Below are positions 3,916 to 27,317 of a stretch of 64,000 nucleotides of DNA, piece by piece. Source of the stretch: Candidatus Dormiibacterota bacterium (GTDB taxonomy: Bacteria > Chloroflexota > Dormibacteria > CF-121); NCBI GenBank assembly GCA_035279665.1, contig DATEHI010000152.1:1350-65349 (forward strand), written 5' to 3'. The translations under genes and the position numbers were made by a program. Position 1 is the first letter of the stretch. Every line of letters begins with the position of its first letter. Under the pieces are notes generated by a model. That model saw only the letters and a list, made by a program, of their open reading frames with translations, made no database searches and had not been told where the DNA came from.

Positions 3916-4341
3916 CTACTGCCTGGCGGCCGCCTGCGAACGCAGGCGCTCCTCCCGCTTCCTGGCCTCTGGCGTCAGGTTGGCACCGAAGTCGTCGGCC
4001 TCGTAGACCTGACGAATCTCGACCTCGCCCTCCTCGCCGGTGGGGTTGGGGATGCGCCTGACCCATTCGAGCGCCTCGTCCAACGATTTCACCTGCCACA
4101 GCCAGAAGCCGGCGATCAACTCCTTCGTCTCGGCGAATGGCCCATCGACGACCGTCCGCTTGGTGCCGGCGAACTTGACGCGCGCGCCTTTCGAGCTCGG
4201 CTGGAGCCCCTCGCCGGCGAGCATCACGCCGGCCTTCATCAGCTCCTCATTGAACTGGCCCATCTCGGTCAGGAGCTGCTCACTGGGAAGCACGCCCGCC
4301 TCCGACTGCTGGCTGGCCTTGATCAGGATCATGAATCGCAT
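3916..4341 (-). CDS. YciI-family protein (DGPF motif), the usual partner of COG4941 sigma factors
   Basis: The 141-aa product contains DGPFAETKE. It lies immediately upstream and co-directional with the sigma gene, and its stop abuts or overlaps the sigma N-terminus. Confidence 0.75.
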   Translation of the reverse strand: MRFMILIKASQQSEAGVLPSEQLLTEMGQFNEELMKAGVMLAGEGLQPSSKGARVKFAGTKRTVVDGPFAETKELIAGFWLWQVKSLDEALEWVRRIPNPTGEEGEVEIRQVYEADDFGANLTPEARKREERLRSQAAARQ

Positions 4342-4492
4342 CGTTGTGTCCTCCTTGGTGATGGTCTCTACCTGGACGTCGAATGGCGACCAGCCAAATC
4401 GACAACGGCCTGTGGATGATGCCCATTGATGACGGTCGCCCCGCCTGCTAGTCTATGCGGGTTTCCGGCAGGCACCAGGGAGGGGACAGGCC

Positions 4493-7400
4493 GTGATTCG
4501 ACAGCGTGCATCGCGACTTCGCAGGTTGAGTCTCACGGTCGGCCTGGCGCTCGCACTCCTGCCGGTCGGGCTTTCGCCAATCAGTGGATGGGCATCCCAC
4601 GCGGCATCGGACGGGCCGGGAAATCTGTCGCACTTCGACCTGGCGCGGAAGGATTGCCTGGGCACCGCCCGGAACACCACGTCGAAAGTCTGGTTCACGG
4701 TCGCCAACGGTGTCCTGAGCGACGTCTATTTCCCGACCGCGGACAACACGAATGTCGAAACCCTCCAACTCGTCGTGACGGACGGGCGCACCTTCACGGA
4801 CCTGCAGACGCGCGACATGACCTACACGGTGAGGGCGCCGGATGCGCGGTCACTCGAATGCCAGGTGACCAGCACGGCAAAAAGCGGACGGTACCGGATC
4901 ACGACCGACTATCTCACCGATCCCGCGCGGAACACGCTGCTGATGCGCATCGCGTTCGAGCCGCAGGAGGGCGACAACGCGAACTATCACGTCTATCTTC
5001 GGTACGACCCGAGCATCAATGGCAATGGCGGGGGCGGTTCGGGCAACGGGGGTGGTGACTCCGGCCTCATCGATACCTCGACTGGGCACGCAGTTCCCGT
5101 CGCCTTCGACACCACGACCACGAGCCAGGCGGTCAACCGCACTTACGCGGTCCCGGTCTTCAGCGCGCTCGATGCCTCGCGGCCCTTCCGCCAGGTTAGC
5201 AACGGCTTCAAGGGCGCCGCCAGCGATGGTCTCACCCAGCTTGATGCGTCTCACGCGATGACCTCCACCAACGACACCGCCAGCAACGGCAACCTCGTCC
5301 AGACCGCGCAGCTCGACTTCGCCGAGGAGGGTGAGCTGACTCTGGCGCTCGGCTTCGGCACCACCCAGGCGCAGGCTGTCGCCGCCGCCGCCGGCTCGCT
5401 GCACGGCGAATTCGATGACGTGCGGGGCTCCTTCCAGGCCGGCTGGCACGCGTACGACGCCTCGCTGATCAAGCCGCCAGCCCACGTGGCCGGCGTGACG
5501 CGAAGCCAGTGGCGCCAGCTGGTGAACGGCTACTACTTGAGCGCCAACGTCGTCAAAGCCAGCGAGGACAAGACGTTTCCCGGCGCGATCGTAGCCAGCC
5601 TCGCGTCGCCCTGGGGCCAGGCGATCTCGGCCGGCGACCCCAACAATCTCTACTTCGGCTCGTACCGGGAGGTCTTTGCGCGCGATCTCTACGAGGCCTG
5701 GACCGCACTCATGGTGGATGGCGACGTGCAGACCGCGCGTGCTGCGGCGCGGTTCCTCCTGGAGCGGCAGCAGCTCCCGGATGGATCCATGCCGCGCAAC
5801 AGCCTGCTCAACGGCAAGGTGGCGCCCGACTCCTTCAACACCCAGCTGGACGAAGTGAGCTACCCGATCGTGATGGCCTACCAGCTCGGCATGACCGACT
5901 CCGTCCTGTATCAGAACCACATCCGATCGGCGATCGATTTCTTGATCGCGCACGGCCCGTCCTTCGGTCCTGAGCGCTGGGAAGAGCAGGGCGGCTTCTC
6001 ACCCTCCACGATCGCGGCCGAAGTCGCCGGGCTCGTGGCAGGCGCGACGATTGCCGAGGCCAACGGCGATACCGCAACGGCGAATGTGGCGCGCGCCGTC
6101 GCCGACGACTGGCAGCGGAGCCTTCCCGGCTGGGCCGTCACGACCAACGGGCCGCTCGCGAGCCATCCGTACTACATCCGTCTTTCGAAGTCGGGCGATC
6201 CCAACGCGGCCATCTCGTACAACGTCGGCAATGGCGGCCCGACGCTGGACCAGCGCGCGATCATCGACCAGGGGTTCCTGGAGATGGTGCGCCTCGGCCT
6301 GACGCCGGCCTCGGATCCGACCATCGCGCAGTCGCTCCCGGTCGTCGACGCCACCATCAAGGCCGACACGTCGACCGGCGCCGGCTTCCATCGCTACAAC
6401 GGTGACGGCTATGGCGACGGTGCCGGCGATGGGCACCCATGGGCGCCGTCGGGCAAAGGCACCGGCCATCTGTGGCCGGCGCTGGCGGGTGAGCGGGGCG
6501 AGTACGAGCTCGCGACCGGCAATGCCGCCGCCGGATGGCAACGTCTGATCGCGATGCTGGGCGGCGCCTCGGGTCCCGGGTTGATCCCGGAGCAGGTCTG
6601 GGAGCTGCCCGACCTCGCCGCCTCACCGTTCGGGACGGATCCGACCGTCGCCTCGATCGGGTTCCACAACGGCGGGCCGGCGGGGTCGGCATCGCCGCTG
6701 ACATGGTCGGACGCGCAGTACGTTCGCCTGATGCGCGATCTGAGTGCCGGCAAGGTGCTCGAGCAGCCGGCCATTGTGGCCAACCGGTATGTCGCGCATC
6801 AGCAGGGACAGACCAGCCTGACCGTCACCCAGCCGGCCGACAACAGCGCGGTCGCCGGGTCCCCGGTCACGGTAGCCGGCACGTCGCTGCCGGGCAACAC
6901 GATCTCCGTCGCGGCGACGAACACCGATAACAACAGCCAGACCACGACGGGGACGACCGCGGTTCAGCCCGACGGCAGCTTCAGCCTGTTGGTACCGGTC
7001 GGCGGAGGCACGACGGTGGTGAACATCGTGGCCGTGAGCCCCACCGGCGCGACCGCGCACGTGCAGCGGAGCATCGTGTTTGACTTCACGCCGGGAACGG
7101 TCCTCCTGGACGTCACCGACCCGAGTGGCGACGACAACGGGCCCGGGAACTATGCGTATCCGACGGCCGGGGACTTCCATGCGGGCGCGTTCGACATCCA
7201 GGAGTTCCGCGTCATCGAGAGTCCGGACGGCGCGACCACCACCTTCAAGTTGAAGGTGCGCGACCTGTCCCCAACGTTTGGCAGCCCGCTCGGCGCGCAG
7301 CTGGTCGACGTCTACGTGCACGACCCGGCCGCCGCGGCGCCGAACACGTCGACGGCGGCGTCGTTCCCTCAGCGCAATTACGCCATCGCGGCCCCCGGGG

Positions 7401-7810
7401 CCTGGAGCCGCCTGGTCGAGGTGCAGGGCTTCGGCCAGCGCTATATCGATGCGCAAGGCACGACCAGGGGAACCGTGACCATCAGTGCCAACGCGATCTC
7501 ACGCTTCATCACCTTCAGCGTGCCGACCGCCAGCCTGGGCGGAGCGCCCGCGTCGGGCTGGGGATTCACGGTCGTCCTCACCGGCCAGGACGGCTTCAGC
7601 CCGGACCAGGCGCGCAGCTTCGCCCCGACGCCGCAGGGCTACCAGTTCGGCGTGTGCGCCACGGCGAGCGCCGACCCGCCTTGCACCTTCGATCCCAACA
7701 AGGTGCCGAAAGCGATGGACGTGCTCACGCCGGTGGGCGTGCTGCAGTCAAACGAGCTCGACTACCTCCTCCACAACCCCGTCACGTTGCAGGACGTCAC
7801 GATTCCGTAG
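4493..7810 (+). CDS. Secreted GH15 glucoamylase/glucodextranase-family protein (1105 aa) with N-terminal beta-sandwich and C-terminal Ig-like domains
   Basis: A GTG start is followed by a signal peptide (LSLTVGLALALLPVGLSPISGWA). The (alpha/alpha)6 region (FPGAIVASLASPWGQA...YFGSYREVFARDLYEAWTAL...LLERQQLPDGSMPRN) is typical of bacterial GH15. Long C-terminal extra domains follow. Confidence 0.8.
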   Translation: MIRQRASRLRRLSLTVGLALALLPVGLSPISGWASHAASDGPGNLSHFDLARKDCLGTARNTTSKVWFTVANGVLSDVYFPTADNTNVETLQLVVTDGRTFTDLQTRDMTYTVRAPDARSLECQVTSTAKSGRYRITTDYLTDPARNTLLMRIAFEPQEGDNANYHVYLRYDPSINGNGGGGSGNGGGDSGLIDTSTGHAVPVAFDTTTTSQAVNRTYAVPVFSALDASRPFRQVSNGFKGAASDGLTQLDASHAMTSTNDTASNGNLVQTAQLDFAEEGELTLALGFGTTQAQAVAAAAGSLHGEFDDVRGSFQAGWHAYDASLIKPPAHVAGVTRSQWRQLVNGYYLSANVVKASEDKTFPGAIVASLASPWGQAISAGDPNNLYFGSYREVFARDLYEAWTALMVDGDVQTARAAARFLLERQQLPDGSMPRNSLLNGKVAPDSFNTQLDEVSYPIVMAYQLGMTDSVLYQNHIRSAIDFLIAHGPSFGPERWEEQGGFSPSTIAAEVAGLVAGATIAEANGDTATANVARAVADDWQRSLPGWAVTTNGPLASHPYYIRLSKSGDPNAAISYNVGNGGPTLDQRAIIDQGFLEMVRLGLTPASDPTIAQSLPVVDATIKADTSTGAGFHRYNGDGYGDGAGDGHPWAPSGKGTGHLWPALAGERGEYELATGNAAAGWQRLIAMLGGASGPGLIPEQVWELPDLAASPFGTDPTVASIGFHNGGPAGSASPLTWSDAQYVRLMRDLSAGKVLEQPAIVANRYVAHQQGQTSLTVTQPADNSAVAGSPVTVAGTSLPGNTISVAATNTDNNSQTTTGTTAVQPDGSFSLLVPVGGGTTVVNIVAVSPTGATAHVQRSIVFDFTPGTVLLDVTDPSGDDNGPGNYAYPTAGDFHAGAFDIQEFRVIESPDGATTTFKLKVRDLSPTFGSPLGAQLVDVYVHDPAAAAPNTSTAASFPQRNYAIAAPGAWSRLVEVQGFGQRYIDAQGTTRGTVTISANAISRFITFSVPTASLGGAPASGWGFTVVLTGQDGFSPDQARSFAPTPQGYQFGVCATASADPPCTFDPNKVPKAMDVLTPVGVLQSNELDYLLHNPVTLQDVTIP

Positions 7811-9460: not shown

Positions 9461-11305
9461 TTACTCGACGGCCTCCATCAGCAGGATCACACTGGGGGCG
9501 CCGCCGAGCACGCCCATGGCGGTGCACTGCACACGGCAGGTGAAGTTCTTCCCGCGCCGGTTGGTCGCCTGCACCGTCAACTCCTGGAACCCGTCGCCGC
9601 CGTTGAGGCATTTCTCGATCGGGTTCGCCAGCTCCGCTAGCGGCAGGCCGATATCGAGTCCGAGCAGTGGCTGGCCGATGGTTTCGTGGGCCTGGACGCC
9701 CCACAGGTCGACGGCTCGCTTGTTCCAGAGCTGGACCCGAAGGTCCTTGTCGAGCACGGCCACACCCAGCTGAAGGTTGGCCATGATCTGTTCCATGAAG
9801 GTGTTCACGCGGTCCAGCTGGATGCTGCGTTCCTGCAACTCGGTATTGATCGTCTGCAACTCGGTGTTCGTCGACTCGAGCTCCTCATTCATCGTCTCGA
9901 GCTCCTCGTTGCTCGATTGGAGCTCCTCGTTAGTGGTTTCCAACTCTTCGACGGTCGACTGCAGTTCCTCGTTGGTGGTCTCCAGCTCTTCGTTGGTCGA
10001 CTGCAATTCCTCGGACGTGGTTTCGAGATCATGCTTGGACCGCTCGAGGTCCCGGTAGATCCCGTTGTATCCGCTGACGTCGGTAAACGAGATGCCGGCG
10101 CCGAGCGGGGTCGCCCCTTTGTCGAGCAATGGCACGACCTCTATGTCGAAATACTGGGGGTCGCCGTTCGGCGCCCGACGCTCGACGTCGTGGGTGACTA
10201 CCGGCAGGCGGTTCCGGTAGGCCTCGTCGATCATCGAGCGCAGATCCAGCGGACGATAGGAAATCTCGAGATCTTGCAGTGGCCGACCCACGTCGGCAGG
10301 GGCAAGGCCAAGGCTCCCGCGCGCCCGCTCATTGATCGAGATGATGAACCCGGCCGTGTCGACAACCACGTGCGCGATCGGCAGCGCGTCGGCCGCCAAC
10401 TCGCGGACGCGCCCCTGGCGGGTCACCTGGTTGGCTGCCTCGGGATTGCCCGCCTGGGCGAGGATGACCAGGCGCTCGCGGAGCGTCTCTTTCGCGACTT
10501 TGCCGAAGACGTGCTGGGTGGCCTCGACTTGCGCAAAGAGGTCACTTCGCCGCAACAGCATTTCCGCCTTGCCCAGGAACAGGTAGCCCTTCTCGGTCAG
10601 TGCATAGTGCAGACGGGCAAGGATCCTCGCCTGCGCCTCCGATTCGAAGTACATCAGCGTATTCCGGCAAATCAGCAGATCGATGCGTGAGATCGGCGCA
10701 TCCTGTAAGAGATCGTGCCGCCCAAAGATGAGCGAGCGTCGGAGATCGCCACGAAGCAGGTAATGGTTCCCCTCGGCCTCGAAGTATTTCTCTCGAAGGC
10801 CGGGGGATACCTCTTCCAGTTCCTTCTCCTCGGCTCTTCCCTGGCGCGCCCGCGTCAGCGCGTCGTCGTCGACGTCGGTGGCGTAGATCTTGGCCCGTTG
10901 TCGATACTCCGTGGTGCCGAGTGCCTCGCAGAGGAGCATCGCGATGCTGTAGGCCTCTTCGCCCGATGCCACGCCGGCGCTCCATACGCGGATCGGCTCG
11001 TAGCGTTCCTTGGTCGCGATGATCTTGGGCAGGATCTCCTGCCGCAGATACTCCCATGCCGGAGCATCTCGAAAGTAGCTGGTCACATTGATGAGGATCG
11101 TGTTGAACAGGGCAGCGAACTCGCCCGGCTGCGCCTCCAGATACTCGAGATAGGCGGCATGGTCCTTGACACCGACGGCCGTCATCCGTTTGGCGACCCG
11201 GCGCACCAAGGTCGTCCGCTTGTAGTCGCCAAAGTCGAAGCCGCGGCTCTCCCGAATGTACTCCAGAAGCCGCTCGAAGTCGGGGCCTGTCGCCTCGCCC
11301 TTCAC
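9461..11305 (-). CDS. cheR: CheR-type protein-glutamate O-methyltransferase fused to PAS / coiled-coil / PAS sensor domains
   Basis: N-terminal CheR SAM-MTase motifs (RVWSAGVASGEEAYSIAMLL, LLICRNTLMYF) are followed by PAS, a heptad-repeat segment (TTSEELQSTNEELETTNEELQ...) and a second PAS. Confidence 0.8.
   Translation of the reverse strand: MKGEATGPDFERLLEYIRESRGFDFGDYKRTTLVRRVAKRMTAVGVKDHAAYLEYLEAQPGEFAALFNTILINVTSYFRDAPAWEYLRQEILPKIIATKERYEPIRVWSAGVASGEEAYSIAMLLCEALGTTEYRQRAKIYATDVDDDALTRARQGRAEEKELEEVSPGLREKYFEAEGNHYLLRGDLRRSLIFGRHDLLQDAPISRIDLLICRNTLMYFESEAQARILARLHYALTEKGYLFLGKAEMLLRRSDLFAQVEATQHVFGKVAKETLRERLVILAQAGNPEAANQVTRQGRVRELAADALPIAHVVVDTAGFIISINERARGSLGLAPADVGRPLQDLEISYRPLDLRSMIDEAYRNRLPVVTHDVERRAPNGDPQYFDIEVVPLLDKGATPLGAGISFTDVSGYNGIYRDLERSKHDLETTSEELQSTNEELETTNEELQSTVEELETTNEELQSSNEELETMNEELESTNTELQTINTELQERSIQLDRVNTFMEQIMANLQLGVAVLDKDLRVQLWNKRAVDLWGVQAHETIGQPLLGLDIGLPLAELANPIEKCLNGGDGFQELTVQATNRRGKNFTCRVQCTAMGVLGGAPSVILLMEAVE
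9805..10045 (-). repeat. Imperfect 21-nt (heptad-coding) tandem DNA repeats inside cheR encoding the EELQSTNEELETTNEEL coiled coil
   Basis: The plus strand shows reiterated gagctcctcgttg..t.g..t units between about 9880 and 10020. Confidence 0.6.
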
Positions 11306-11976
11306 CGAACCACCCCTTGTGCGACCAGGGTCGTAAGGGCCGGCGGGATCTCCTCGAGCCGAAGAATGAAATCGGCATGGCCCGACTTGATCGCCGCCCC
11401 GGGCATACCGAAAAACTCCGCCGACTCCTGAGCCTGGGCGATCACGGTACCACCCATCTTCTTGATCGCCCCGATGCCGAGCGATCCATCGCTTCCGGTT
11501 CCGGTGAGGACCACCGCAATCGCGCGGTCCTTGTAGCTTGCCGCTACCGATTCGAAGAGCAGGTCGGCGCTCGGCCGGACGAAATGGACCAGCTCGGATT
11601 GCGTCAGCGACAGGCTCCCGTCCCGATTGACCAGGAGATGACGGTCGGGCGGCGCGATGTGCACCGTTCCCGGCCGGATGTGATCACCCTCCGCGGCCTG
11701 GACGACCTCGAGCGGGGTCCGCCGGCGAAGGATCTCGGCCATCAGGCTGCGGTGGCGCGGATCCAGATGTTGGACCACGACAATCGCCGCCGGGAAGCCG
11801 GCCGGGAGGCTCTCCAGGATGTGCCCGATCGCCGCGATGCCACCCGCCGACGAGGCCAGGGCGACCACGTCGTAGGCCGTCAGCGGAAACCGCTGGGCGG
11901 GTTTGGGCGGATCGAGATCGTCAGGCTCGGCTGAGGGCGGTGTTTGCTGGACCAACGTGCCCCTCCTTGGGCCCAT
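11302..11976 (-). CDS. cheB: CheB-type protein-glutamate methylesterase, catalytic domain only (no receiver)
   Basis: VVALASSAGGIAAIGHILESLP...VVVQHLDP...AIAVVLTGTGSDG is the CheB_methylest signature. There is a 4-nt overlap with the downstream cheR start. Confidence 0.8.
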   Translation of the reverse strand: MGPRRGTLVQQTPPSAEPDDLDPPKPAQRFPLTAYDVVALASSAGGIAAIGHILESLPAGFPAAIVVVQHLDPRHRSLMAEILRRRTPLEVVQAAEGDHIRPGTVHIAPPDRHLLVNRDGSLSLTQSELVHFVRPSADLLFESVAASYKDRAIAVVLTGTGSDGSLGIGAIKKMGGTVIAQAQESAEFFGMPGAAIKSGHADFILRLEEIPPALTTLVAQGVVR

Positions 11977-12070
11977 GCTACCCCCGCATCGATGCCGCGT
12001 GTATTAGGTGCAGCCGTGTGGGGTAGCGTAGTATCGGGACGTGGCCCGCGTCAGTGCCCCCGGCCAGCCA

Positions 12071-12610
12071 ATGAGTGAGCTCTACCTGATCCAGGGCGAG
12101 GAGCCCGACACGAGAGACCTCGACGATGCACGCCAGTGGGTCACGATCTACCGCGAGCTCGTCACCTTCGCCGAGCGAACCCTGAGCCGGTTGCGACGAG
12201 GCGCCGGCAACAACACGGACAGAGACCACGCGGCGGCCAGTGATGCGGACGAGCGTGGGATGGAAGGGCACCTACGGCGCCTGCAGTCGCGGCTCGACTT
12301 CTGGGAGCGCCGCCTGTGGGACCTCGCCGGTCTCGACCTCGACATTCGGCGGCGCGTGCTCACCTATGCGGGGCGGCGGCTGACCCTGACCCGTCGCGAA
12401 GCGGAATTGCTGTCCTTCCTCGCCCGGCGGCCCGGCCAGTTCTTCTCGGCGGCGCAGTTGGTCAGCCTTGCCTGGGCCGCGCCCGAGCTTTCCGCCGAGC
12501 AACTTCGCACCTATGTCGTCCGGCTGCGACGCCATCTGGCGACCACAGGGGTCCCGGCCCGACTGGTGAGCGAGCCACGCCGCGGCTACGGGCTGGTCTT
12601 CACCGCGTGA
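12071..12610 (+). CDS. OmpR/PhoB-type winged-helix DNA-binding protein without receiver domain
   Basis: The C-terminus (LTLTRREAELLSFLARRPGQFFSAAQLVSLAW...LRTYVVRLRRHL...EPRRGYGL) is a trans_reg_C domain. The start is chosen at MSELYLIQ; 12041 is an alternative. Confidence 0.55.
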   Translation: MSELYLIQGEEPDTRDLDDARQWVTIYRELVTFAERTLSRLRRGAGNNTDRDHAAASDADERGMEGHLRRLQSRLDFWERRLWDLAGLDLDIRRRVLTYAGRRLTLTRREAELLSFLARRPGQFFSAAQLVSLAWAAPELSAEQLRTYVVRLRRHLATTGVPARLVSEPRRGYGLVFTA

Positions 12611-12618
12611 GCACCTCA

Positions 12619-13014
12619 ATGCCGCAGCGAAACAATGTCCTGCAACTTCGGCCCCAACGCCCGCCGGCCGCGGCGGCCCTAGCGGCTGACGAGTCGGCGT
12701 CGCGGATGGCCATCACGGTCCGCACCCAGCTGTCGCTGCTGCAGGGATATGCCGACATCATGGAGGGCTTGTCCCCCGAGCTGACGAAGCAGATCCTCCA
12801 GATCATGGCGCAGAAAACTCGGGATCTCGGTTCCTTGCTTCAGCCATTCACCGAGCAAACACCGGCAGCGCGGCCCGACATCGGCGACTACCGCCGCGTG
12901 CGGCAACGGACCCGCCACCTGATTGCGGAGTATCGCCTCTTGCTCGAGGGCCTCCACACGCGCGTGTCGGAGGCGCGCGAGCACGTCAGCGGACCCGGGG
13001 AAAAACACGGCTAA
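12619..13014 (+). CDS. Hypothetical protein (131 aa)
   Basis: ATG at 12619 lies 9 nt after the upstream stop. The ORF is in-frame and non-repetitive, with no recognisable domain. Confidence 0.35.
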   Translation: MPQRNNVLQLRPQRPPAAAALAADESASRMAITVRTQLSLLQGYADIMEGLSPELTKQILQIMAQKTRDLGSLLQPFTEQTPAARPDIGDYRRVRQRTRHLIAEYRLLLEGLHTRVSEAREHVSGPGEKHG

Positions 13015-13025
13015 CTGCTGAACCC

Positions 13026-14714
13026 GTGACCGTCGTCGAGTTGCGCGTGCTCGACGGGCCCAACCTCTACTTCACGCGGCCCGCCATCAAGCTGACGCTC
13101 GAGGTGGCTCCCTGGCTGGCCCTCCCAGACGAGCGGGCGCAACGCCTCGCCAGGCGGGCCGGCTTCACACCGGCGGCGACCGCGGGCGCGCCCAGGAGCG
13201 ACCAGCGCCGCCGCTATGTCGCCCGCTTCGCGGTGCACATCGCGCGTCTGCTGGCTGACGCAACCGCGACGCACCTCGCGATTCGCGGCCGGCCTGGTCC
13301 GGACGCCGAGCAGATCGTGGTGGCGTTCGTGTGGCGCCGGCAGCGGGCCGCGGAAGCGTTCGCGCGCGAGCTCGCCCCGCTGCTGGAGTTATGCCTCGAC
13401 GGGCGCCGATCGCTCGAACGGGCCATCGCGGAAGCGGCGGATCGCCTGGGCAGCATGGAGCCCGGGCCGGCGCCGACGGTGCTGCGCCCCACCATTCCCA
13501 TCATCGCGGTGACGGGGACCAACGGCAAGACCACCACCGTGCGGTTGATCGCGCAGCTGGCGCGTATGGCCGGGCACACCGTCGCCTTCACGACGACCGA
13601 CGGGGTCTATCGCGACGACGAGCTGGTCGAGGCGGGCGACTACTCCGGGTTCAGCGGGGCGGCCAAGGCGCTGGCGCAGCCCGGCATCGACCTCGCGGTG
13701 CTGGAGACGGCACGCGGCGGGATCCTGCTCCGAGGGATGGGCACCGACCATAACGACGTGGCGGTGGTGACCAATGTGACCGAGGACCACCTTGATCAAT
13801 ACGGGATCCGCACCCTCGACCAGCTGGCGGAAGTCAAAGCGGCGATCACCAAGATCACGAGGCCGGACGGCTGGGACGTGCTCAATGCCGACGATCCACG
13901 AGTGCTGGCGATGCGACGGTTGGCGGCGGGCCGCCCCTGGCTCTTCTCGCTGGACGCGGACCACCCGGCGATTCGCACGACGCTGGCCGAGGGTGGGCGC
14001 GCGATCTCGGTTCTCGATGGCGCCCTCGTCCTTATCACCTCCGGCCGTCAGGGTCACCGACTCGTCCCGATCGAGGATGTGCCGGTTACGCTGGCGGGCA
14101 TTTCCAGCCATAACGTGAGCAACGCGATGGCGGCGGCGGCGGCCGCCCTTGGTGCGGGGATCCCAGAGGAGGCCGTCATCGAGGGGCTTCGCTCCTTCGT
14201 GTTGGACCCGGAGCGCAATCCTGGCCGGGCCAATATTTTCGAAGTCGATCGCCGCGTGGTGGTCATCGATTACGCCCATAACGAAGACGGCATGCGCGGC
14301 TTGATCGAGATCTGCCAGGGGCTGCGAGCACCGGGCGCCGGCATCGTTCTGGCGTTTGGCTCGGCCGGCGACCGGACCAACGCCATCCTCCACCGGCTGG
14401 GATACACGGCGGCGCGTGGTCCGGACCGGGTCGCGATCGCCGAGCTGCATCGGTACCTGCGCGGCCGCGATCCCCAGGACCTGGTCCACCGGCTGCAGGC
14501 GGGGCTTACGGACGGCGGGAAGCCGAAGTCTCCTGTGTTTCCCAACGAGCTCGAGGCGCTCGAATGGATGTTGGCGGCGTCGGCACCCAACGATGTGATC
14601 GCAATCACTGCGCTGGGGCAGCGCCCCCAGATCTTCCAGTACCTGCGCGACCGGGGCGGAGCACCGGTCGCCCCGCTCCGCATCCGGGAACTGGTGCGGC
14701 GCGCGCGGACCTAA
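13026..14714 (+). CDS. Cyanophycin-synthetase-like protein lacking the ATP-grasp (G) domain (CphA N-domain plus Mur-ligase M-domain; CphA2-like)
   Basis: The N-terminus MTVVELRVLDGPNLYFTRPAIKLTLEV parallels the CphA N-domain and the downstream cphA (ILESQVLRGPNFWSYDPAIRLLVDL). It is followed directly by the Mur-ligase P-loop IIAVTGTNGKTTT at about residue 165. The ~300-aa ATP-grasp segment is therefore absent. Confidence 0.65.
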   Translation: MTVVELRVLDGPNLYFTRPAIKLTLEVAPWLALPDERAQRLARRAGFTPAATAGAPRSDQRRRYVARFAVHIARLLADATATHLAIRGRPGPDAEQIVVAFVWRRQRAAEAFARELAPLLELCLDGRRSLERAIAEAADRLGSMEPGPAPTVLRPTIPIIAVTGTNGKTTTVRLIAQLARMAGHTVAFTTTDGVYRDDELVEAGDYSGFSGAAKALAQPGIDLAVLETARGGILLRGMGTDHNDVAVVTNVTEDHLDQYGIRTLDQLAEVKAAITKITRPDGWDVLNADDPRVLAMRRLAAGRPWLFSLDADHPAIRTTLAEGGRAISVLDGALVLITSGRQGHRLVPIEDVPVTLAGISSHNVSNAMAAAAAALGAGIPEEAVIEGLRSFVLDPERNPGRANIFEVDRRVVVIDYAHNEDGMRGLIEICQGLRAPGAGIVLAFGSAGDRTNAILHRLGYTAARGPDRVAIAELHRYLRGRDPQDLVHRLQAGLTDGGKPKSPVFPNELEALEWMLAASAPNDVIAITALGQRPQIFQYLRDRGGAPVAPLRIRELVRRART

Positions 14715-17470
14715 GTCCCGGGCGAGACGGGCAACGCCCGGCGCGCCTCGAGGTTGCGCCAGGTGTCGGCGGGCTTGTCGACGCAGAGGAGGACCACATC
14801 GCCGGCGCTGGCGCGGCCGAGGGCGGCGTCGATGGCCGGTCCCTCGTCGATGATGATCTCGGCGCTCTGCACGCGGCTCTCGGCGGCGGCCTTGATGCCC
14901 TCCATCACGTGGCCGGCGATCTCGCCACGCTGCCGACCGCGAGGGTTCGCGTCTTCGCGCACGATCAGGATGTCGAAGACGCGCGCCGCCACCCGCCCGA
15001 GCTCGCGCATGTCCTCGTTCCGGCGATCACCAGGGGTTGCGATCACGGCGATGCGGCGCCCCGGCTCGGGTCCGTTGACCCCTGGCGCCGTGAGGCGCTC
15101 CACGAAGTCTCCGGCCAGCGCGAGGCCATGCGGGTTATGGGCGTAGTCGACGATCACCTTCACGCCGTGCAGCTCGAACATGTTGAGGCGTCCGGGCGCT
15201 TCGTGGAACGATGGATGGAAGCTGCGCAGCCCCTGCCGGATGTCGTGCAGGTGGGCGCCGGCGGCGTGGGCCGCCGCCGCTGCGGCCAGCGCATTCTGGA
15301 CGTTCGCCCGCGCCCGACCCTCGAAGGTGGCCGGGATCAGGTGGATCCAGGCGATCTGCGTGCTGCGCCGGCCCTCGCGCAGCACCATCATCTCGCGGCC
15401 GCCCGGCTGCGTCTCGATGACGAAGGCTTTGCGGCCGCGACGCACCCAGCGACCCACCAACTCGTTGTCGTCGCGCATCGAGAAAAGGATGACCGACCCG
15501 CTGCAGTGGGTCCGCATCTCGGCGACCAGCTCGTCATCGGCGTTGAGGACGGCGGTGCCGCTGCGGGGAACGGCCTCGACAATGACCCGCTTGATGGCGG
15601 CCAGCTGGCGCAACGAGTTCACCTCTTTGAGGCCGATGTGGTCGCCGGTGACGTTCAGCACGACCGCGACGTCGTTCGCGCTGTAACCAAGGCCCTCCCG
15701 AAGGATCCCACCGCGAGCGACCTCGAAGACGGCAAAGTCGACGCGAGGATTCTGGAGCACCATGCGGGCGGAGCGCGGGCCGCTCGCGTCGGCCGGCTTG
15801 ACCAGCCGGCCGTCGATATAGATGCCGTCGGTGGTCGTCATCCCGACCTTGTGGCCGAGGCCTCTGACGATGTGGGCGATCATGCGCGCCGTGGTCGTCT
15901 TGCCGTTCGAGCCGGTGACGGCGACGATCGGGATGCGCGAGGGCGTACCTTGCGGGAACAGCAGATCGATGACGGCCTTCGCCACATACTGCGGCTCGCC
16001 CTCGGTAGGGTGGGTGTGCATCCGAAAGCCGGGGGCGGCGTTCACCTCGACGATCGCCCCTCCAGTTTCGCGCACCGGCTGGCAGATGTCAGGCGTCAGG
16101 AAGTCGATGCCTGCCACGTCGAGACCGACCACGCGCGCCGCCTCTTCGGCGATCTCGACGTTGTCGTGATCCGCCTCCATGGTGCGGTCGATCGAGATGC
16201 CTCCGGTCGACATGTTGGCGGTCGCCGCCAGCTTGACGACCGCATCCTTTGGCGCAATCTCGTCGAGGCCGAATCCCTGCCGTTTGACCAGCGCGTCGGC
16301 GGCGTCATCGATCTTGATCCGGGTCAGCACCTTTTCGTGGCCGATGCCGCGCCTGGGATCGCGGTTAGTGATGTCGACCAGCTCGCGCACCGTGTGTTCC
16401 CCGTCGCCGATGACGTGCGCGGGAACCCGCTCGGCGACCGCAACCATGTGGCCGTCGATGACGAGCACCCGATAGTCGTTGCCCTTGATAAAACTCTCCA
16501 CCACGACCACACCGCTGCGCGTCTGGCGGATGGCTCGCTCAAAGGCCCGACGGACGTCTTCCTCGGTGCGCAGGTCGAGACTCACGCCGCGTCCATGGTT
16601 GCCGTCGAGCGGCTTCAACACCACCGGATAACCGATGCGCGCGGCGATTGCCGCGGCCTCGTCCGCGGATCGGACGGTATCGCTGCGGGGCACCGGCAGC
16701 CCCGCTGAGGCGAGCAAGGACGTGGTCAGCTTCTTGTCACCCGCGATGTCCACACCCAGCGCCGAGGTGCGGGACGTCATGGTGGCGCGGATGCGCTGCT
16801 GGTATTTGCCCTGTCCGAGCTGGACAAAGGACTGCTCGTTCAGCCGGATGTAGGGGATGTCGCGGCGTGCGGCTTCGTCGAGAATCGCCTGGGTCGAGGG
16901 GCCGAACGCGGCCTGGTCGGCCAGCAGCACCAGGCTCTCCAGCTCGGCGACGAAGTCGAAGGTCGGGTTGGGTTCCACCAGGTGATTGAGCAGCCGGACG
17001 GCAAGCTTCCCGGCCGCCAGTCCGACCTGTTCCTCGTTGTAGCCGTAGACCACGTTGTAATAGCCGGGCGTACCCGCCCGCCGCGTCTTGCCTCGCGTCG
17101 TGCTCGCGCCGGTTTCGCGCTGGAGCTCGAGCGCAACGTGCTCGGCGACGTGGCCCATCCACGTCCCGTCGCGGAGACGCTCGATGAAGCCGCCCGGGCG
17201 GTGGAGCGAGCAGCCGTGATCCTGCAGGCCGGGCAGCAGGTCGATCAGCGCCTCGTTGAAGGCGGGGATCGTGTTCGAGGGCCAGTGCTCGAGCGAGCCG
17301 AGGTCGACGAGCAGGCGAATCGCCGGGTCGTAGGACCAGAAGTTGGGTCCACGCAGCACCTGGCTTTCCAGGATCTTGAGGTTCGGCTTTAGCGGCGGTT
17401 TGTTCTCGACGGGCTCGTGCTTGGCATCCTCGTCGCGCTCGACTCGCGTCTCCATGCGCGACTCGCTCAC
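14711..17470 (-). CDS. cphA: Cyanophycin synthetase CphA (N-domain, ATP-grasp, Mur-ligase domains; 919 aa)
   Basis: ATP-grasp motifs (YPVVLKPLDGNHGRGV, DYRVLVIDGHMVAV) and the Mur-ligase motif IVAVTGSNGKTTT are present. The start ATG overlaps the cphB stop (ATGA). Confidence 0.85.
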   Translation of the reverse strand: MSESRMETRVERDEDAKHEPVENKPPLKPNLKILESQVLRGPNFWSYDPAIRLLVDLGSLEHWPSNTIPAFNEALIDLLPGLQDHGCSLHRPGGFIERLRDGTWMGHVAEHVALELQRETGASTTRGKTRRAGTPGYYNVVYGYNEEQVGLAAGKLAVRLLNHLVEPNPTFDFVAELESLVLLADQAAFGPSTQAILDEAARRDIPYIRLNEQSFVQLGQGKYQQRIRATMTSRTSALGVDIAGDKKLTTSLLASAGLPVPRSDTVRSADEAAAIAARIGYPVVLKPLDGNHGRGVSLDLRTEEDVRRAFERAIRQTRSGVVVVESFIKGNDYRVLVIDGHMVAVAERVPAHVIGDGEHTVRELVDITNRDPRRGIGHEKVLTRIKIDDAADALVKRQGFGLDEIAPKDAVVKLAATANMSTGGISIDRTMEADHDNVEIAEEAARVVGLDVAGIDFLTPDICQPVRETGGAIVEVNAAPGFRMHTHPTEGEPQYVAKAVIDLLFPQGTPSRIPIVAVTGSNGKTTTARMIAHIVRGLGHKVGMTTTDGIYIDGRLVKPADASGPRSARMVLQNPRVDFAVFEVARGGILREGLGYSANDVAVVLNVTGDHIGLKEVNSLRQLAAIKRVIVEAVPRSGTAVLNADDELVAEMRTHCSGSVILFSMRDDNELVGRWVRRGRKAFVIETQPGGREMMVLREGRRSTQIAWIHLIPATFEGRARANVQNALAAAAAAHAAGAHLHDIRQGLRSFHPSFHEAPGRLNMFELHGVKVIVDYAHNPHGLALAGDFVERLTAPGVNGPEPGRRIAVIATPGDRRNEDMRELGRVAARVFDILIVREDANPRGRQRGEIAGHVMEGIKAAAESRVQSAEIIIDEGPAIDAALGRASAGDVVLLCVDKPADTWRNLEARRALPVSPGT

Positions 17471-18399
17471 TCCGAGGCCTTTCGATCCTCGAGACGGCGC
17501 ACCATCTTTCGAACGCGGCCCTGCGCCATCTGGGCGAGATGCTCGTCCTTGGCGAGGACCCGCGGCAGCACGCGGCGCGCGCGCAAGTCGAATCGGTAAC
17601 CGGATGGGAGGGAGTGGAGGCGCGCGTTCGACACCATCATCGGCTTGTGACCGGTCGTCTGGAAAGCGTCGGTGATCACATCGGTGCCGTCGACGATCGT
17701 CACCGAGCCCCGGCCGATCACTTCGAGGACATCATTGGCATCGATGATGGCGGCGGTATCCTCATCGAGGCCCAGCCCGATCAGCGAGGGCGACTGCGCG
17801 ACCACCGCGAGCAGTCGGCCGAGCCGGGTGCGCTGCTCGAAGTGCTGATCGACCACGACGTCGACGAGCAGCCCCAGACCGACCGAGACGTTCGCCATCC
17901 GGTGCTTCGGCGTGGCACCCGAGCTGCCGAACGCCATCATGTGGGTCGCAACCGCGCTCGCGCCCGCGGATGTCCCCGCCACGACGACCCCGCGGCCGTG
18001 GGCGTCGAGCATGGCGGCGCCGAGCTTGGTTCCGCCGATCACGGAGGATAATCGCAGCTGATTACCGCCGGTCATGAAGATGCCGGTGATGTCCTTGAGC
18101 GCCTCGACCATAAGCGGATCGTTGGCCTCTTCGCGAGTTTCCGGACGGAGTCCGGTGACCTTGCTCACGCCGACCCGAGCGAAGATCTGACCGTACAGGT
18201 CCGTCGCCGCATCGCCGAGGGAAGAGGCGGTGCTGATCACGGCGATGCGGGCATGATCGCCACCGGCAAGCTGGGCGAAGCGCGACAGGATGACCCGCTC
18301 GCCCAGTTTGTCCTCGGCGCCGCCGATGACCATGACCGGCCCGACCGGGCCGCCGTCAGTGGTGGGAGCAAGCCGCTGCGGAGCGGACGCGTCGGTCAT
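17467..18399 (-). CDS. cphB: Cyanophycinase CphB (peptidase S51)
   Basis: VMVIGGAEDK...GTSAGASAV... matches the S51 catalytic Ser context. The gene is translationally coupled to cphA. Confidence 0.85.
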   Translation of the reverse strand: MTDASAPQRLAPTTDGGPVGPVMVIGGAEDKLGERVILSRFAQLAGGDHARIAVISTASSLGDAATDLYGQIFARVGVSKVTGLRPETREEANDPLMVEALKDITGIFMTGGNQLRLSSVIGGTKLGAAMLDAHGRGVVVAGTSAGASAVATHMMAFGSSGATPKHRMANVSVGLGLLVDVVVDQHFEQRTRLGRLLAVVAQSPSLIGLGLDEDTAAIIDANDVLEVIGRGSVTIVDGTDVITDAFQTTGHKPMMVSNARLHSLPSGYRFDLRARRVLPRVLAKDEHLAQMAQGRVRKMVRRLEDRKASE

Positions 18400-18536
18400 T
18401 CACGACAGTGTACCGGCGCTCGTATTCCGGCGCTTCGGCTATTTTTTGCGGAATCTTATATGATTGATGTCACATCGTCTGCCAGGCTGGGTTAGCGATC
18501 GGCCTTCCTCGTGCGACGACATGAGTACGGGACTAT

Positions 18537-19760
18537 ATGAGAATATGGGATTGCGGATATCAGGTATTGAATACGGTGATTGACCAGGACGCGGGGACAG
18601 CGGAGCGGACGCCCGCCAGCCGTGCGAAACGCCAGGCGGCCGAGTTGCTACCCCGTCTGCTCGAAGCGTTGCCCCTCGCGGTGGCGCTGTTCGAGCTCGA
18701 CGTCGACGGGTTCCGGTTCCGCTACGGCAACCAGGTGTTCGCTCGGATCCTTTCCCTCGACCGATTGCCCGATGACGGGCAGCTCGTCGGTGAAGTCTTC
18801 CGCCGGGAGGAGCACGACGCAGTCATCGACCTCTTCCAGCTCGTCCGTGTCAGCCGCGAACCACAGAGCTGCTTTGCAGCCGAGGGCGGACAGGGCGCAG
18901 AGACGAACCGCATCTTGAATATCGATGCCTACCCAATGCTCAAGCTCGGCCGCGTGAGCCATGTGCTGGTCCTGGTCGAACAGACGCAGGAGAAGCTGGA
19001 AGCGCGCCAGCGCCAGCAACTCGAGGCCAACCGCTTGCGCAAGAAGGCGGACCAGCTAGCGGGTTTGGAAAAGGCGAAGTCGGAATTCTTACGACTGGCG
19101 TCACACGAGCTCCGAGGACCCGCGGCCATGCTCGGCGGTTACCTCTCGATGATCGAAGACGAATCGTTGGGGCCGGTCCCGCAGGGGTTGCGTCCCGTGT
19201 TGCCGATGTTGAAAGCAAAAGCCGCGCAGATCAACCTCCTCGCCAACGAGATGGTGGAGGCGGCGCGGCTCGAAGATGGGCGCGTGCAGCTGAAGCGCAA
19301 GCGGGTCGATCTGCGGCAGGTGGTCCGTCGCAGTGTCGGGGCAGCGGAAACGACGGCCACACCGCAGCACCGGATCCGTTTTGAGGATCGCGCCAGCCGC
19401 GAGCTCTGGGTACTGGGTGACGTCTTGCGGCTGGAAATCATCGTCGCTAACCTGCTCGACAATGCCATCAAGTACTCGCCGAAGGGCGGCGATGTCACAG
19501 CCGAACTCTCGACCTCGGGCGACATCGCCGTGCTCAGCGTCCGAGACCAGGGCATCGGGATCGCCGCTCAGGACATGGAGCGGCTGTTCGTGCGCTTCAG
19601 CCGGCTGGCGACCCTCAACGACGTGCCCGGCACCGGGCTGGGCCTCTACCTGGCGAGAGAGCTGGCCCGTCTGCACAAGGGTGAAATCGTGTGCGTCTCG
19701 AAACTCGGTGAGGGGAGCGAGTTCGTGCTGAGTCTCCCGGTTGAGCCCGCCAGCAAGTAA
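18537..19760 (+). CDS. PAS-containing sensor histidine kinase (HisKA plus HATPase_c)
   Basis: The H-box is LASHELRGP. The N, G1 and G2 boxes are LLDNAIKYSP, DQGIGI and GTGLGL. The exact start is uncertain (the ATG at 18537 sits in an AT-rich promoter region). Confidence 0.75.
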   Translation: MRIWDCGYQVLNTVIDQDAGTAERTPASRAKRQAAELLPRLLEALPLAVALFELDVDGFRFRYGNQVFARILSLDRLPDDGQLVGEVFRREEHDAVIDLFQLVRVSREPQSCFAAEGGQGAETNRILNIDAYPMLKLGRVSHVLVLVEQTQEKLEARQRQQLEANRLRKKADQLAGLEKAKSEFLRLASHELRGPAAMLGGYLSMIEDESLGPVPQGLRPVLPMLKAKAAQINLLANEMVEAARLEDGRVQLKRKRVDLRQVVRRSVGAAETTATPQHRIRFEDRASRELWVLGDVLRLEIIVANLLDNAIKYSPKGGDVTAELSTSGDIAVLSVRDQGIGIAAQDMERLFVRFSRLATLNDVPGTGLGLYLARELARLHKGEIVCVSKLGEGSEFVLSLPVEPASK

Positions 19761-25201: not shown

Positions 25202-25879
25202 ATGCCAGATCGGCTGCAACAAGCCATTACGGTGCTCCAGACCCGCTTCGGGAGCGCCGCGCCGCGCCCGTCGGCACCTCCGTGTCCGGCACGATCCTCC
25301 GGGATCCCCGAGCTCGATGCGTTGACTGGGATCGGCGGGTGGCCGGTGGGCCGGCTGAGCTTGCTGGCGGGACCGAGGGGTTCGGGCAAACGAACACTGG
25401 CGCAGCGCAGCGTCGCCGCCGCCAGCCGGGAGGGACCGGTTGCCTACGTCGACATTCCTGGCCGTCTCGATCCAGAATTTCTGAGCCACTTCGATGCGCG
25501 GCTCGACCACCTGCTGGTCGTGCGACCGAAATCCATCAAAGAAGCGATGGCCAGTGTACGGGTGCTGGCGCGTGCCGGCGTCGACTACATCGCCATCGAT
25601 CTGCCGCGCACGCGATCCTCGGGGCTCGATGCCGAGCTGCCGCACTTGTTGCACCGCGCCGCTGAAGCCGAGTGCACGCTCTTGCTGATCCATGACGCTG
25701 ACGCCGAGGACGCGATCCGCTATTACGCCAGCCTGATCCTGAGCTTCCAGCGCAGCGCCTGGGTCTTTCGCCGCGACGGCGATCTGGAAGGCTTGCAGGT
25801 CGATGCCGCCGTCGTCAAGAACCGGCTGGCGCCACCGGGCCGCACCGCCCGATGGATCGTTCCATACCCGATCCCATGA
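25202..25879 (+). CDS. imuA: ImuA' (RecA-fold SulA-like protein of the imuA'-imuB-dnaE2 mutasome)
   Basis: The Walker A-like motif LLAGPRGSGKRTLA and its position as first gene of the cassette behind a LexA box support the call. Confidence 0.7.
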   Translation: MPDRLQQAITVLQTRFGSAAPRPSAPPCPARSSGIPELDALTGIGGWPVGRLSLLAGPRGSGKRTLAQRSVAAASREGPVAYVDIPGRLDPEFLSHFDARLDHLLVVRPKSIKEAMASVRVLARAGVDYIAIDLPRTRSSGLDAELPHLLHRAAEAECTLLLIHDADAEDAIRYYASLILSFQRSAWVFRRDGDLEGLQVDAAVVKNRLAPPGRTARWIVPYPIP

Positions 25880-27066
25880 TCTGCTGCGTTCGCACGCCCC
25901 ACCCATCGCTGATCGCCGCCTGGCTGACGGCGCCGGCGTTGCGCGGCCGTCTACTGATCCTCGGCGGGTTCGCGCACGAGCGCGCTTCGGTGACGACGGC
26001 ATCGGCCGAAGCGCGGGCGCAGGGCGTGGTCGAGGGGATGAGCCTCAACCAGGCTCAACAATTTGCGCCCGACGCCATCTTTCAACCGGTCGACGAGGAG
26101 GCCACAGCCAGGGTCCGCCAGTCCCTGCTCCTGATCCTGCACCACTTCACCCCCGACGTGGCTGCCGGCGAGGATCCTGGCTGTGCCTTCCTCCGTCTCG
26201 ACCGGCTGGCCTTGCGCTGGCCCGACCGTTCGCAATTGCTGGCCGCCATCGGCCGTGCGATCGAGGCCGCCATCCGCGTCAGGCCGGCGATTGGCGTGGC
26301 GTCGTCGATGTTCGTCAGTGCGGTTGCGGCTGCCCATGCCACGGCTGCGGCCCCGGTGATCGTCGAGCAAGAGAACACGCGAGCCTTTCTCGCTCGCTAC
26401 CCGATCGATGTCCTGCCGCTCGATGACGACCTGCGTGAATACCTCGAGCTCCTCGGGATCAAGACGATCGGCCGTCTGCAGGCGATCTCTCGACCCGCGT
26501 TTCGCCGCCAGTTCGGCCAGAAAGCCCTCGTCGTCTATGACCTGGCGTTCGGCGATGACCGGCGTCGCTTACGGCCCTGGCGGCCGGCCGTCCGGATCGA
26601 GGAAAGCGAGCCACTCGAGCCGCCGGTCGACAACACCCAGGCGCTACAATTCATCGCCCGCGCGCTGGCCGAGCGGGTGAGCGCCTCACTGCTTTCGCAA
26701 GGGCTTGGGACACGCGCGGTCCGTATCACCCTCAACCAGGAGTCGGCACCGGCGCTGGTGATCGAGGCGCGCTTTGCCTACCCGATGACGACCGCGGGCG
26801 AGCTGTTCGATGGGATTCGCCCGCGATTGCTGCGCGCGTCGATCATCGCGCCGCTGGAACGGATCACGCTGCGCGCCGGCCGGCTGGAAGCGGCCTATGT
26901 TCGCCAACCCGGGCTGCTGATCCGACGCGATCCCTTCACGGAAGGGATCGCCGATGCGGTCGCGCGCCTACAGGAGGAGTACGGGCCGTCCCTGGTCCAG
27001 CGTGCCGAGGTCCGCAGCGATGCTGCGCCACTCCCGGACCACCGGATCCTGTGGAAACCCGCGTGA
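25852..27066 (+). CDS. imuB: ImuB (catalytically inactive Y-family polymerase-like protein), N-terminal 404 aa
   Basis: Y-family palm/fingers-like region. It overlaps the imuA' end by 28 nt. Its C-terminal domain appears to continue in a different frame (next feature). Confidence 0.7.
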   Translation: MDRSIPDPMICCVRTPHPSLIAAWLTAPALRGRLLILGGFAHERASVTTASAEARAQGVVEGMSLNQAQQFAPDAIFQPVDEEATARVRQSLLLILHHFTPDVAAGEDPGCAFLRLDRLALRWPDRSQLLAAIGRAIEAAIRVRPAIGVASSMFVSAVAAAHATAAAPVIVEQENTRAFLARYPIDVLPLDDDLREYLELLGIKTIGRLQAISRPAFRRQFGQKALVVYDLAFGDDRRRLRPWRPAVRIEESEPLEPPVDNTQALQFIARALAERVSASLLSQGLGTRAVRITLNQESAPALVIEARFAYPMTTAGELFDGIRPRLLRASIIAPLERITLRAGRLEAAYVRQPGLLIRRDPFTEGIADAVARLQEEYGPSLVQRAEVRSDAAPLPDHRILWKPA

Positions 27067-27317
27067 CGGAACTGCTGGCGCCGGCACGGCCGGTCCGGGT
27101 GCGTGTCGATGCGGATGGCGTGCCGACGCACCTCGAGTCGGCGGCCGGGTGGCAGCCGGTGACCCGTGTGCTCAACCGCTGGCGAATCGACTGCGACTGG
27201 TGGCGCAGCCCGGTCTCGCGCGAGTACTGGCGGCTGCTGATCGACGATGACCTCGCGCTCGAGTGCTATTGCAACCGGGCCAGTGCGGAATGGTTTGTCG
27301 AGCGCGTCTATGACTAG
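27051..27317 (+). CDS. imuB: ImuB C-terminal domain segment (88 aa) in the -1 frame relative to imuB. This is a frameshift or a split gene
   Basis: VTELLAPARPVRVRVDADGVPTHLE...RWRIDCDWWRSPVSREYWRLLIDDDLALECY...FVERVYD carries the WW / WR motifs of the ImuB C-terminal domain. Its GTG at 27051 overlaps the imuB stop region. Confidence 0.55.
   Translation: METRVTELLAPARPVRVRVDADGVPTHLESAAGWQPVTRVLNRWRIDCDWWRSPVSREYWRLLIDDDLALECYCNRASAEWFVERVYD

Follow-up and report, generated by a model that had tools for sequence, protein, structure and literature searches.

Cyanophycin is a nitrogen-storage polymer of industrial interest, and its synthesis has so far been explained by two classes of enzyme, CphA1, which works with an ATP-grasp (G) domain and a Mur-ligase-type (M) domain, and CphA2, which works with the G domain only. 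In CphA1, the G domain adds aspartate to the chain end, and the M domain phosphorylates the β-carboxylate of that aspartate and joins arginine to it (PMC9427784). A Cx19HxxEH motif in the N-terminal (N) domain confers the primer-generating peptidase activity of CphA1 enzymes (PMC9262961). In CphA2, the M domain is truncated (residues 487-636 in StCphA2) and inactive, and of its N, G and M domains only G is catalytic, polymerizing β-Asp-Arg dipeptides (PMC10273328). Here we describe a cyanophycin locus in a 64,000-nucleotide (nt) stretch (hereafter, the window) of contig DATEHI010000152.1 from the soil bacterium Candidatus Dormibacteraeota, in which genes for cyanophycin synthetase 1 (cphA) and cyanophycinase (cphB) are accompanied by a gene for a 562-amino-acid (aa) protein made up of an N domain joined directly to an M domain (N+M). 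With this protein, the cyanophycin synthetase family gains a new architectural variant; N+M proteins are an old, widespread and conserved family that is genomically tied to cphA1-cphB. Since at least five phyla have such a conserved and apparently active M-only paralogue next to cphA1-cphB, a part of the pathway would seem to be still unknown. Our full-text literature searches found no description of an N+M-only CphA-like enzyme; their coverage was incomplete, and an earlier description is possible.

Compared with the CphA1 structures from Synechocystis sp. UTEX2470 (7LG5/7LGJ) and Trichodesmium erythraeum (7WAC/7WAE), the 562-aa protein has a homologous N domain and a homologous, full M domain (M identity, 36-43%), the same N-M arrangement (template modeling [TM] score, 0.81) and all ATP/Mg and catalytic residues of M, and its gene adjoins cphA1-cphB. 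Unlike CphA1, it has neither the G domain of about 320 aa nor the Cx19HxxEH primer-generating peptidase site, and it carries family-specific substitutions in the lid motifs and in the GD[YWF]SGP loop. The likeness to CphA2 suggested by the first-pass annotation was not borne out, as the two proteins have undergone opposite domain losses: CphA2 keeps G and has an inactive M domain of about 150 aa, whereas the 562-aa protein has no G and an M domain of about 400 aa. Without G, and with an M domain that is complete and apparently active, it cannot operate in the manner of CphA2. Both are reduced CphA derivatives in which the N domain is non-catalytic, and the host organisms of both encode CphA1 in addition, but CphA2 is cyanobacterial, whereas N+M proteins are found in Dormibacteraeota, Actinomycetota, Chloroflexota, Gammaproteobacteria and Myxococcota. 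With MurE, the protein shares the fold of the central ATPase and C-terminal domains, the P-loop, the Glu Mg ligand, the Asp-His dyad, a Lys at the position of the carbamylated lysine, and the GDR and xxPR/RGR lid motifs. It differs from MurE in its N-terminal domain, which is unrelated, being of the CphA type and not of the type that binds uridine diphosphate (UDP), in its weaker scores, in the absence of a cell-wall gene cluster, and in having no counterpart of the C-terminal GKGHEDYQ segment. The cphA/cphA' tandems of Betaproteobacteria (e.g., Nitrosomonas europaea, L068) resemble the present locus in that a second, reduced CphA copy stands beside a full cphA; unlike here, the reduced copy keeps N and G, with about 240 aa of M matched, and thus provides an extra G, while here an extra M is provided. 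Such tandems were seen at nine betaproteobacterial loci (L030, L044, L045, L058, L063, L064, L068, L074 and L076), the first copy with a shortened M domain and the second at full length.

The domain composition of the 562-aa protein was examined with several independent approaches. In Pfam, only Mur_ligase_M (PF08245, residues 162-374) and Mur_ligase_C (PF02875, residues 400-529) were matched, and the N terminus indeed runs into the Mur-ligase domain near residue 165, with the P-loop GTNGKTT at residues 164-170. No ATP-grasp family was found at E ≤ 0.1 in the Pfam domain search, in agreement with the initial proposal that this domain is missing. A cryptic ATP-grasp domain was ruled out by this search together with the AlphaFold model and Foldseek, in which G was aligned as a gap. 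An upstream extension of the open reading frame (ORF) was likewise excluded, since no in-frame start codon lies between the preceding stop at about 12690 and position 13026, and no domain is therefore hidden upstream. Against the CphA1 model TIGR02068, the protein scored 370.9 bits (cut-off, 850), with only model positions 478-847 aligned; with no G domain and a score under the cut-off, it is not a member of CphA1. The best MurE model gave 118 bits, murE TIGR01085 gave 112.6 bits (cut-off, 257.3), and the other Mur-family models among the NCBIfam matches listed likewise remained below their cut-offs; with an N domain of another type as well, the protein is not a peptidoglycan Mur ligase. When the sequences of solved structures were searched, CphA1 was matched at E = 4e-65, compared with 2e-22 for a MurE-MurF fusion (8f5d) and 1.5e-19 for MurE (7d27). 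The best homologues outside its own family are thus CphA1 M domains and not MurE, MurF or FolC (371 versus 118 bits; 4e-65 versus 2e-22).

The N-terminal likeness to the CphA N domain, noticed in the first-pass annotation, was recovered by BLAST (E = 0.003 over 34 residues) and confirmed by HHalign, in which 24 family members were compared with 16 CphA1 N domains (probability, 98.1%; E = 1.3e-13; 147 columns). PF18921 was not detected in the 562-aa protein at E ≤ 0.1. No HxxEH motif occurs anywhere in the protein, and the aligned positions read RxxVH, indicating that the N-domain peptidase site is absent, as has also been reported for CphA2 and the primer-dependent TmCphA1 (PMC9262961). GPN[LF][YW] is the most conserved N-terminal motif of the N+M proteins. 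In SuCphA1, a hydrophobic loop (Y14/I17) contacts the M domain (PMC9262961), and we infer that the GPN[LF][YW] motif corresponds to the segment of this loop. The AlphaFold2 model of the 562-aa protein, built on an alignment of 57 sequences, had a predicted local distance difference test score (pLDDT) of 96.8 and a predicted TM-score (pTM) of 0.94, with an N-M linker of only about 10 residues. The best Foldseek matches in the PDB were the CphA1 structures 7lgj, 7lg5, 7wae and 7lgq, with query-normalized TM-scores of 0.80-0.81 over about 880 columns, in comparison with about 0.53 for the best MurE. Scores of this size over about 880 columns indicate that N and M superpose jointly, placed relative to each other as in CphA1, while G is left as a gap. 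In short, the model portrays the 562-aa protein as CphA1 minus the G domain.

The M domain keeps the lid and all catalytic residues. Residues were mapped through an alignment of the 562-aa protein to SuCphA1 486-814, and the roles of the M-domain residues were taken from PMC9427784 and PMC9262961. All ATP/Mg and activity-critical M residues named in these two studies are present. K168 corresponds to K499 of TeCphA1, for which mutation to alanine impairs activity; T169, T191 and E227 correspond to the Mg ligands T500, T522 and E558; N166 corresponds to N497, which stacks on adenine; and R401 and H418 correspond to R731 and H748, which provide the lid contacts to ATP. The D254/H255 pair matches D585/H586 of SuCphA1, the double mutation of which is a published route to M-domain inactivation. 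In 57 family members, these residues show full or almost full conservation, as does K271, the counterpart of the carbamylated lysine in the MurE alignment, and the R479-G-R481, G448-D-R450 and E508 positions are common to CphA1 and the N+M family. The ratio of nonsynonymous to synonymous substitution rates (dN/dS) was about 0.12 against the 78%-identical orthologue on a related metagenome contig (L001), revealing purifying selection. Judged from the retained residues, the M domain of the 562-aa protein is apparently catalytically active.

To place the protein among its relatives, 1.84 billion cluster representatives were searched. Many full-length relatives were returned, measuring about 540-585 aa and sharing 35-63% identity with the window protein (33-63% in full-length alignments to 23 representatives), and conservation over the full length extends to more than 100 clusters at 90% identity. 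Among the best 150 representatives, 68 were of N+M layout, as defined by a length of 500-640 aa and a P-loop within residues 130-210, and 19 were CphA1-like. The family falls into two branches, branch A, which holds the window protein, and branch B, in which the N domain is more divergent (HHalign probability, 99.5% versus branch A and 96.4% versus CphA1). Both carry derived residues absent from CphA1, namely Gly211, Asn398, Tyr477 and an aromatic residue at position 206. The window protein shows the family hallmarks of length, GPNL motif, N joined directly to M, Gly211, Asn398 and Tyr477. In most neighbor-joining bootstraps, branch A formed its own clade apart from 88 CphA1 M domains. This separate position, along with an identity of 36% to the M domain of the neighboring CphA, led us to reject a recent duplication of the adjacent cphA as the source of the 562-aa gene. 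No Pfam or NCBIfam model describes branch A. PF16292 (DUF4938), which has no assigned function, was matched by 3 of the 57 family sequences, all outside the branch of the window protein as far as checked, and was not matched by the window protein itself; in some branch B members, it covers the N-terminal region and part of M (P0173, 102 bits). A cluster representative of 566 aa (P0258), which is of N+M size and has a RimK-like ATP-grasp remnant at residues 74-157, nested among Bacteroidota CphA1 M domains in the tree and appears to have lost its G domain independently and more recently.

The genomic surroundings of N+M genes were collected from a scan of one genome per GTDB species with our own domain mapping, to which the related metagenome contig L001 was added. 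Of the 14 informative branch A loci, 13 had a full cphA1 within 10 kb, in every case downstream of the N+M gene and on the other strand (convergent), and cphB was present wherever the flank reached. These loci span Dormibacteraeota, Actinomycetota (Kribbella, Terrabacter and metagenome-assembled genomes [MAGs]) and Chloroflexota (a Chloroflexota MAG, Thermomicrobiales and a Chloroflexia MAG). In branch B, the N+M gene was positioned directly downstream of cphA on the same strand at all five informative loci, in the order cphB-cphA-N+M (Luteimonas, three other Gammaproteobacteria, and Plesiocystis pacifica of the Myxococcota). As cphA1 is found in about 6% of complete genomes (PMC10206079), the linkage between N+M genes and cphA1 is far beyond chance. 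Other neighbors of N+M genes were not conserved across lineages, and the upstream genes differed between the two Dormibacteraeota loci. A functional operon with upstream genes was considered for the Actinomycetota, where moaA and two short-chain dehydrogenase/reductase genes (FabG/InhA-like by family) recur, but it found no support, the recurrence being lineage synteny only. In the 88 sampled CphA1 M domains, which include those of the partners, the P-loop Lys, the Glu Mg ligand, the Asp-His pair and the equivalents of Lys271 and Arg401 were conserved at 100%, and the lid His at 99%. With the M domain of every partner intact, the N+M protein is no replacement for a dead M domain in its partner CphA1. 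At one Actinomycetota MAG locus (L015, 9407-16648), the coding sequences of N+M, cphA and cphB are all broken up among several frames, most likely owing to assembly frameshifts rather than pseudogene formation.

Because N and M are kept as arranged in CphA1 and the ATP site is complete, the protein is best read as a free-standing side-chain ligase. We give about an even chance to the proposal that the 562-aa protein is a functional CphA1 paralogue without G, acting as a stand-alone, ATP-dependent side-chain ligase on cyanophycin in trans to CphA1. Without a G domain, it cannot extend the poly-Asp backbone. When bound at the M site of CphA1, a cyanophycin analogue occupies the space between the N domain and the core of the M domain (PMC9427784), and a cyanophycin chain with an undecorated Asp would bind in the same cleft of the 562-aa protein. 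ATP-Mg, held by the P-loop K168, T169/T191/E227, D254/H255 and K271, would then serve to phosphorylate the β-carboxylate of this Asp. The incoming amino acid, arginine by default, would be held by the lid motifs GDR (448-450) and YLRGR (477-481), and its α-amino group would attack to form the isopeptide bond. Physiologically, such an enzyme might supply extra Arg-loading capacity or complete chains released with bare Asp. A stand-alone Arg-adding module, the second option raised in the first-pass annotation, is our leading hypothesis, with an incoming substrate that is perhaps not arginine.

Several observations weigh against this assignment. CphA1 has its own active M domain, leaving a second M without an obvious need. 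Branches A and B were monophyletic in 7 of 40 neighbor-joining bootstraps. The sole exception among the informative branch A loci, a Sphaerobacteraceae MAG (L016; N+M gene, 3461-5113), lacked both cphA and cphB over the flanks available (10 kb downstream and 3.4 kb upstream), and the occurrence of DUF4938 in some branch B members and in one Pseudomonas strain protein reported in a paper suggests that the linkage to cyanophycin may not be universal. Moreover, an alignment with MurE showed that the N+M family differs systematically from CphA1 at predicted substrate-contact positions. After the GDR motif, CphA1 reads GDR-R(85%)-D-E-D(86%), whereas branch A reads GDR-x-D-x-x, the conserved Arg and Asp being lost. 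The Asp that precedes the RGR motif in CphA1 (82%) is lost in the N+M family. Two residues before R479, where CphA1 is variable (D/N/C), Tyr477 is found in 97% of branch A and 82% of branch B. Window position 211 is Ser in CphA1 (90%) and Gly in branch A (97%), and the GD-x-[ST]-GP loop, with Cys, Ala or Thr in CphA1, has an aromatic residue in the N+M family (GD[YWF]SGP). In the alignment to E. coli MurE, the GDR segment falls on GGDRDKGKR, Tyr477 on the Asn of DNPR, and the aromatic loop on TENTTG. The GGDRDKGKR and DNPR segments and the TENTTG loop of MurE bind the incoming diamino acid and the acceptor. Family-specific residues at such positions imply that the incoming amino acid or the acceptor may differ; the substitutions may be taken as a lead towards a different substrate, and not as a demonstration of one.

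It is therefore possible, if rather doubtful, that the same fold and chemistry serve another substrate, either a non-arginine amine or amino acid or another acceptor (internal Asp residues, short fragments or another polyanion), giving a modified cyanophycin or a distinct product. The replacement of CphA1-conserved lid residues by family-conserved ones in the segments aligned with GGDRDKGKR and DNPR is consistent with this possibility, as are the similar change in the loop aligned with the MurE acceptor loop, the sharing of Gly211, Asn398, Tyr477 and the aromatic residue at 206 by both branches, and the filing of part of the N+M family as DUF4938. However, R479-G-R481, G448-D-R450 and E508 are kept as in CphA1, and the tight cphA1-cphB linkage argues for a cyanophycin-related substrate. 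Carried further, the substitutions would make the N+M proteins a third functional class of the cyanophycin synthetase family, that is, free-standing ligases attaching non-arginine residues or decorating positions beyond the reach of CphA1. We consider this unlikely but tenable; if true, soil Terrabacteria and Xanthomonadales-like Gammaproteobacteria would make an undescribed, chemically modified cyanophycin-type polymer. The conserved genomic pairing with cphA1 might alternatively reflect an obligate partner subunit which, instead of being a free enzyme, forms a hetero-oligomer with CphA1 and alters the G:M stoichiometry or processivity. CphA1 and CphA2 are known to oligomerize via their G and M domains (PMC10273328), and the mirror pairing in Betaproteobacteria, where a full cphA stands with a cphA' of truncated M, suggests that paired synthetases recur. 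We nonetheless regard a partner subunit as improbable, because the 562-aa protein has no G domain, which is part of the known dimer interface, and because the branch A gene lies on the opposite strand from cphA and can be 5-8 kb away from it (Kribbella, L007/L013), so that co-translation is not conserved in branch A.

Far less probable than any of these is a peptidoglycan or folate Mur-family ligase (MurE, MurF or FolC) with no link to cyanophycin, or else what is left of a decaying cphA duplicate. The Mur-ligase Pfam domains and the database label of the entry HKV32457.1 ("Mur ligase family protein"), to which the 562-aa protein is 100% identical, would fit such an origin. The MurE models, however, scored 112-118 bits, below their cut-offs, in contrast with 371 bits for the CphA model; the N domain is of the CphA type and not UDP-binding; and none of the genes around the N+M gene in the window is of cell-wall type. 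As for a remnant, purifying selection, the intact active site and conservation across phyla exclude decay, and the identity of only 36% to the neighboring CphA M domain speaks against a recent duplicate. The least probable reading of all, with almost no weight in our view, is a CphA2-type enzyme that re-polymerizes β-Asp-Arg dipeptides. A general family resemblance and an adjacent cyanophycinase as a dipeptide source are all that favor it, whereas CphA2 polymerizes by means of G, which the 562-aa protein lacks while having a full-length M, and no molecule named cyanophycin synthetase 2 was among the 51 PDB matches at E ≤ 0.001.

If the N+M protein is a free-standing side-chain ligase, its contribution could lie in extra side-chain loading, in chain finishing or repair, or in the attachment of a different side chain, and it would be a practical tool for tailored cyanophycins. 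Cultured carriers of the family include Terrabacter aerolatus NBRC 106305, Kribbella strains, Luteimonas lutimaris and Plesiocystis pacifica.

The three ORFs of the locus were recovered exactly where the first-pass annotation had placed them (Table 1), and the high GC content that it noted was measured at 66-70%. Its description of the 562-aa gene as divergent from cphA was wrong: the two genes are convergent (tail to tail), and their stop codons, TAA and TAG, overlap. The proposed translational overlap between cphB and cphA is present only if cphA starts at the GTG at 17470, and it reads GTGA and not ATGA. An alternative ATG start at 17455 would give a product of 914 aa and an 11-nt spacer to cphB; 914 aa is also the length of the cphA orthologue in contig L001. 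The 919-aa product is a full three-domain CphA1, as had been claimed, with a TIGR02068 score of 1160.4 bits (cut-off, 850) and Pfam matches to PF18921, several ATP-grasp families, Mur_ligase_M and Mur_ligase_C. Its N domain carries the Cx19HxxEH motif at aa 87-111. No entry identical to the exact 919-aa product was found in the protein collection searched. The 310-aa protein was correctly called as the cyanophycinase CphB (TIGR02069, 242.7 bits; cut-off, 126.6; PF03575 matched) and is identical to HKV32459.1. A promoter and terminator scan of 11900-18700 returned one promoter-like site and no terminators.

Table 1. Positions of the cyanophycin locus and of other features in the window
Feature	Size or residues	Positions	Strand	Evidence or remarks
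N+M gene (CphA paralogue without G domain)	562 aa	13026-14714	+	GTG start; ORF and domain searches
N+M protein, N domain	aa 1-147	13026-13466	+	Divergent CphA1 N homologue; GPNLY loop kept, Cx19HxxEH absent
N+M protein, M-domain core	aa 155-395	13488-14210	+	P-loop G164-T170 (K168), T169/T191/E227, D254-H255, K271
N+M protein, M-domain lid	aa 396-562	14211-14711	+	R401, H418, GDR 448-450, family-specific YLRGR 477-481
cphA (complete cyanophycin synthetase 1)	919 aa	14711-17470	-	TIGR02068, Pfam domains
CphA, N domain	aa 31-190			
CphA, G (ATP-grasp) domain	~aa 191-510			
CphA, M domain	aa 511-919			
cphB (cyanophycinase)	310 aa	17467-18399	-	TIGR02069, PF03575 (Peptidase_S51)
Trans_reg_C protein gene		12041-12610	+	Trans_reg_C DNA-binding domain only
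Small ORF		12706-13014	+	No Pfam match
Histidine kinase gene		18537-19760	+	Divergent from cphB
Glucodextranase gene		4493-7810	+	GH15, SLH-like C-terminal module
CheR-PAS and CheB genes		9461-11976	-	CheR methyltransferase fused to PAS domains, then CheB methylesterase
Tandem repeat in CheR gene	21/42 bp	9866-10013		Heptad coiled coil
ImuB-like gene		25852-27066	+	Y-family polymerase
DnaE2-type gene		27247-30453	+	Error-prone polymerase III alpha
Membrane protein ORF	916 aa	51595-54345	+	Multi-pass; no Pfam match
Tandem repeats in membrane protein ORF	39 bp, four copies	52514-52668		98% identical

Three genes close to the locus may be local regulators of the cyanophycin genes. The Trans_reg_C gene and the small ORF both precede the N+M gene, from whose start codon the end of the small ORF is 11 nt away, and the histidine kinase gene has a counterpart that also adjoins cphB in contig L001. 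The large glucodextranase gene lies 5 kb upstream of the N+M gene, and a GH15/trehalase-like gene is found near the N+M gene of Kribbella as well (L007, 3633-5492, minus strand); the proximity of GH15 genes to the N+M gene in both is probably a coincidence.

Elsewhere in the window, the tandem repeat within the CheR gene encodes a heptad coiled coil (ELETTNEELQSTNEELE...). The ImuB-like Y-family polymerase gene followed by the DnaE2-type polymerase gene makes up a mutasome cassette. The 916-aa multi-pass membrane protein is encoded in a region of strong negative AT skew, and its four tandem repeats encode RLPAFPRWSGAPN.

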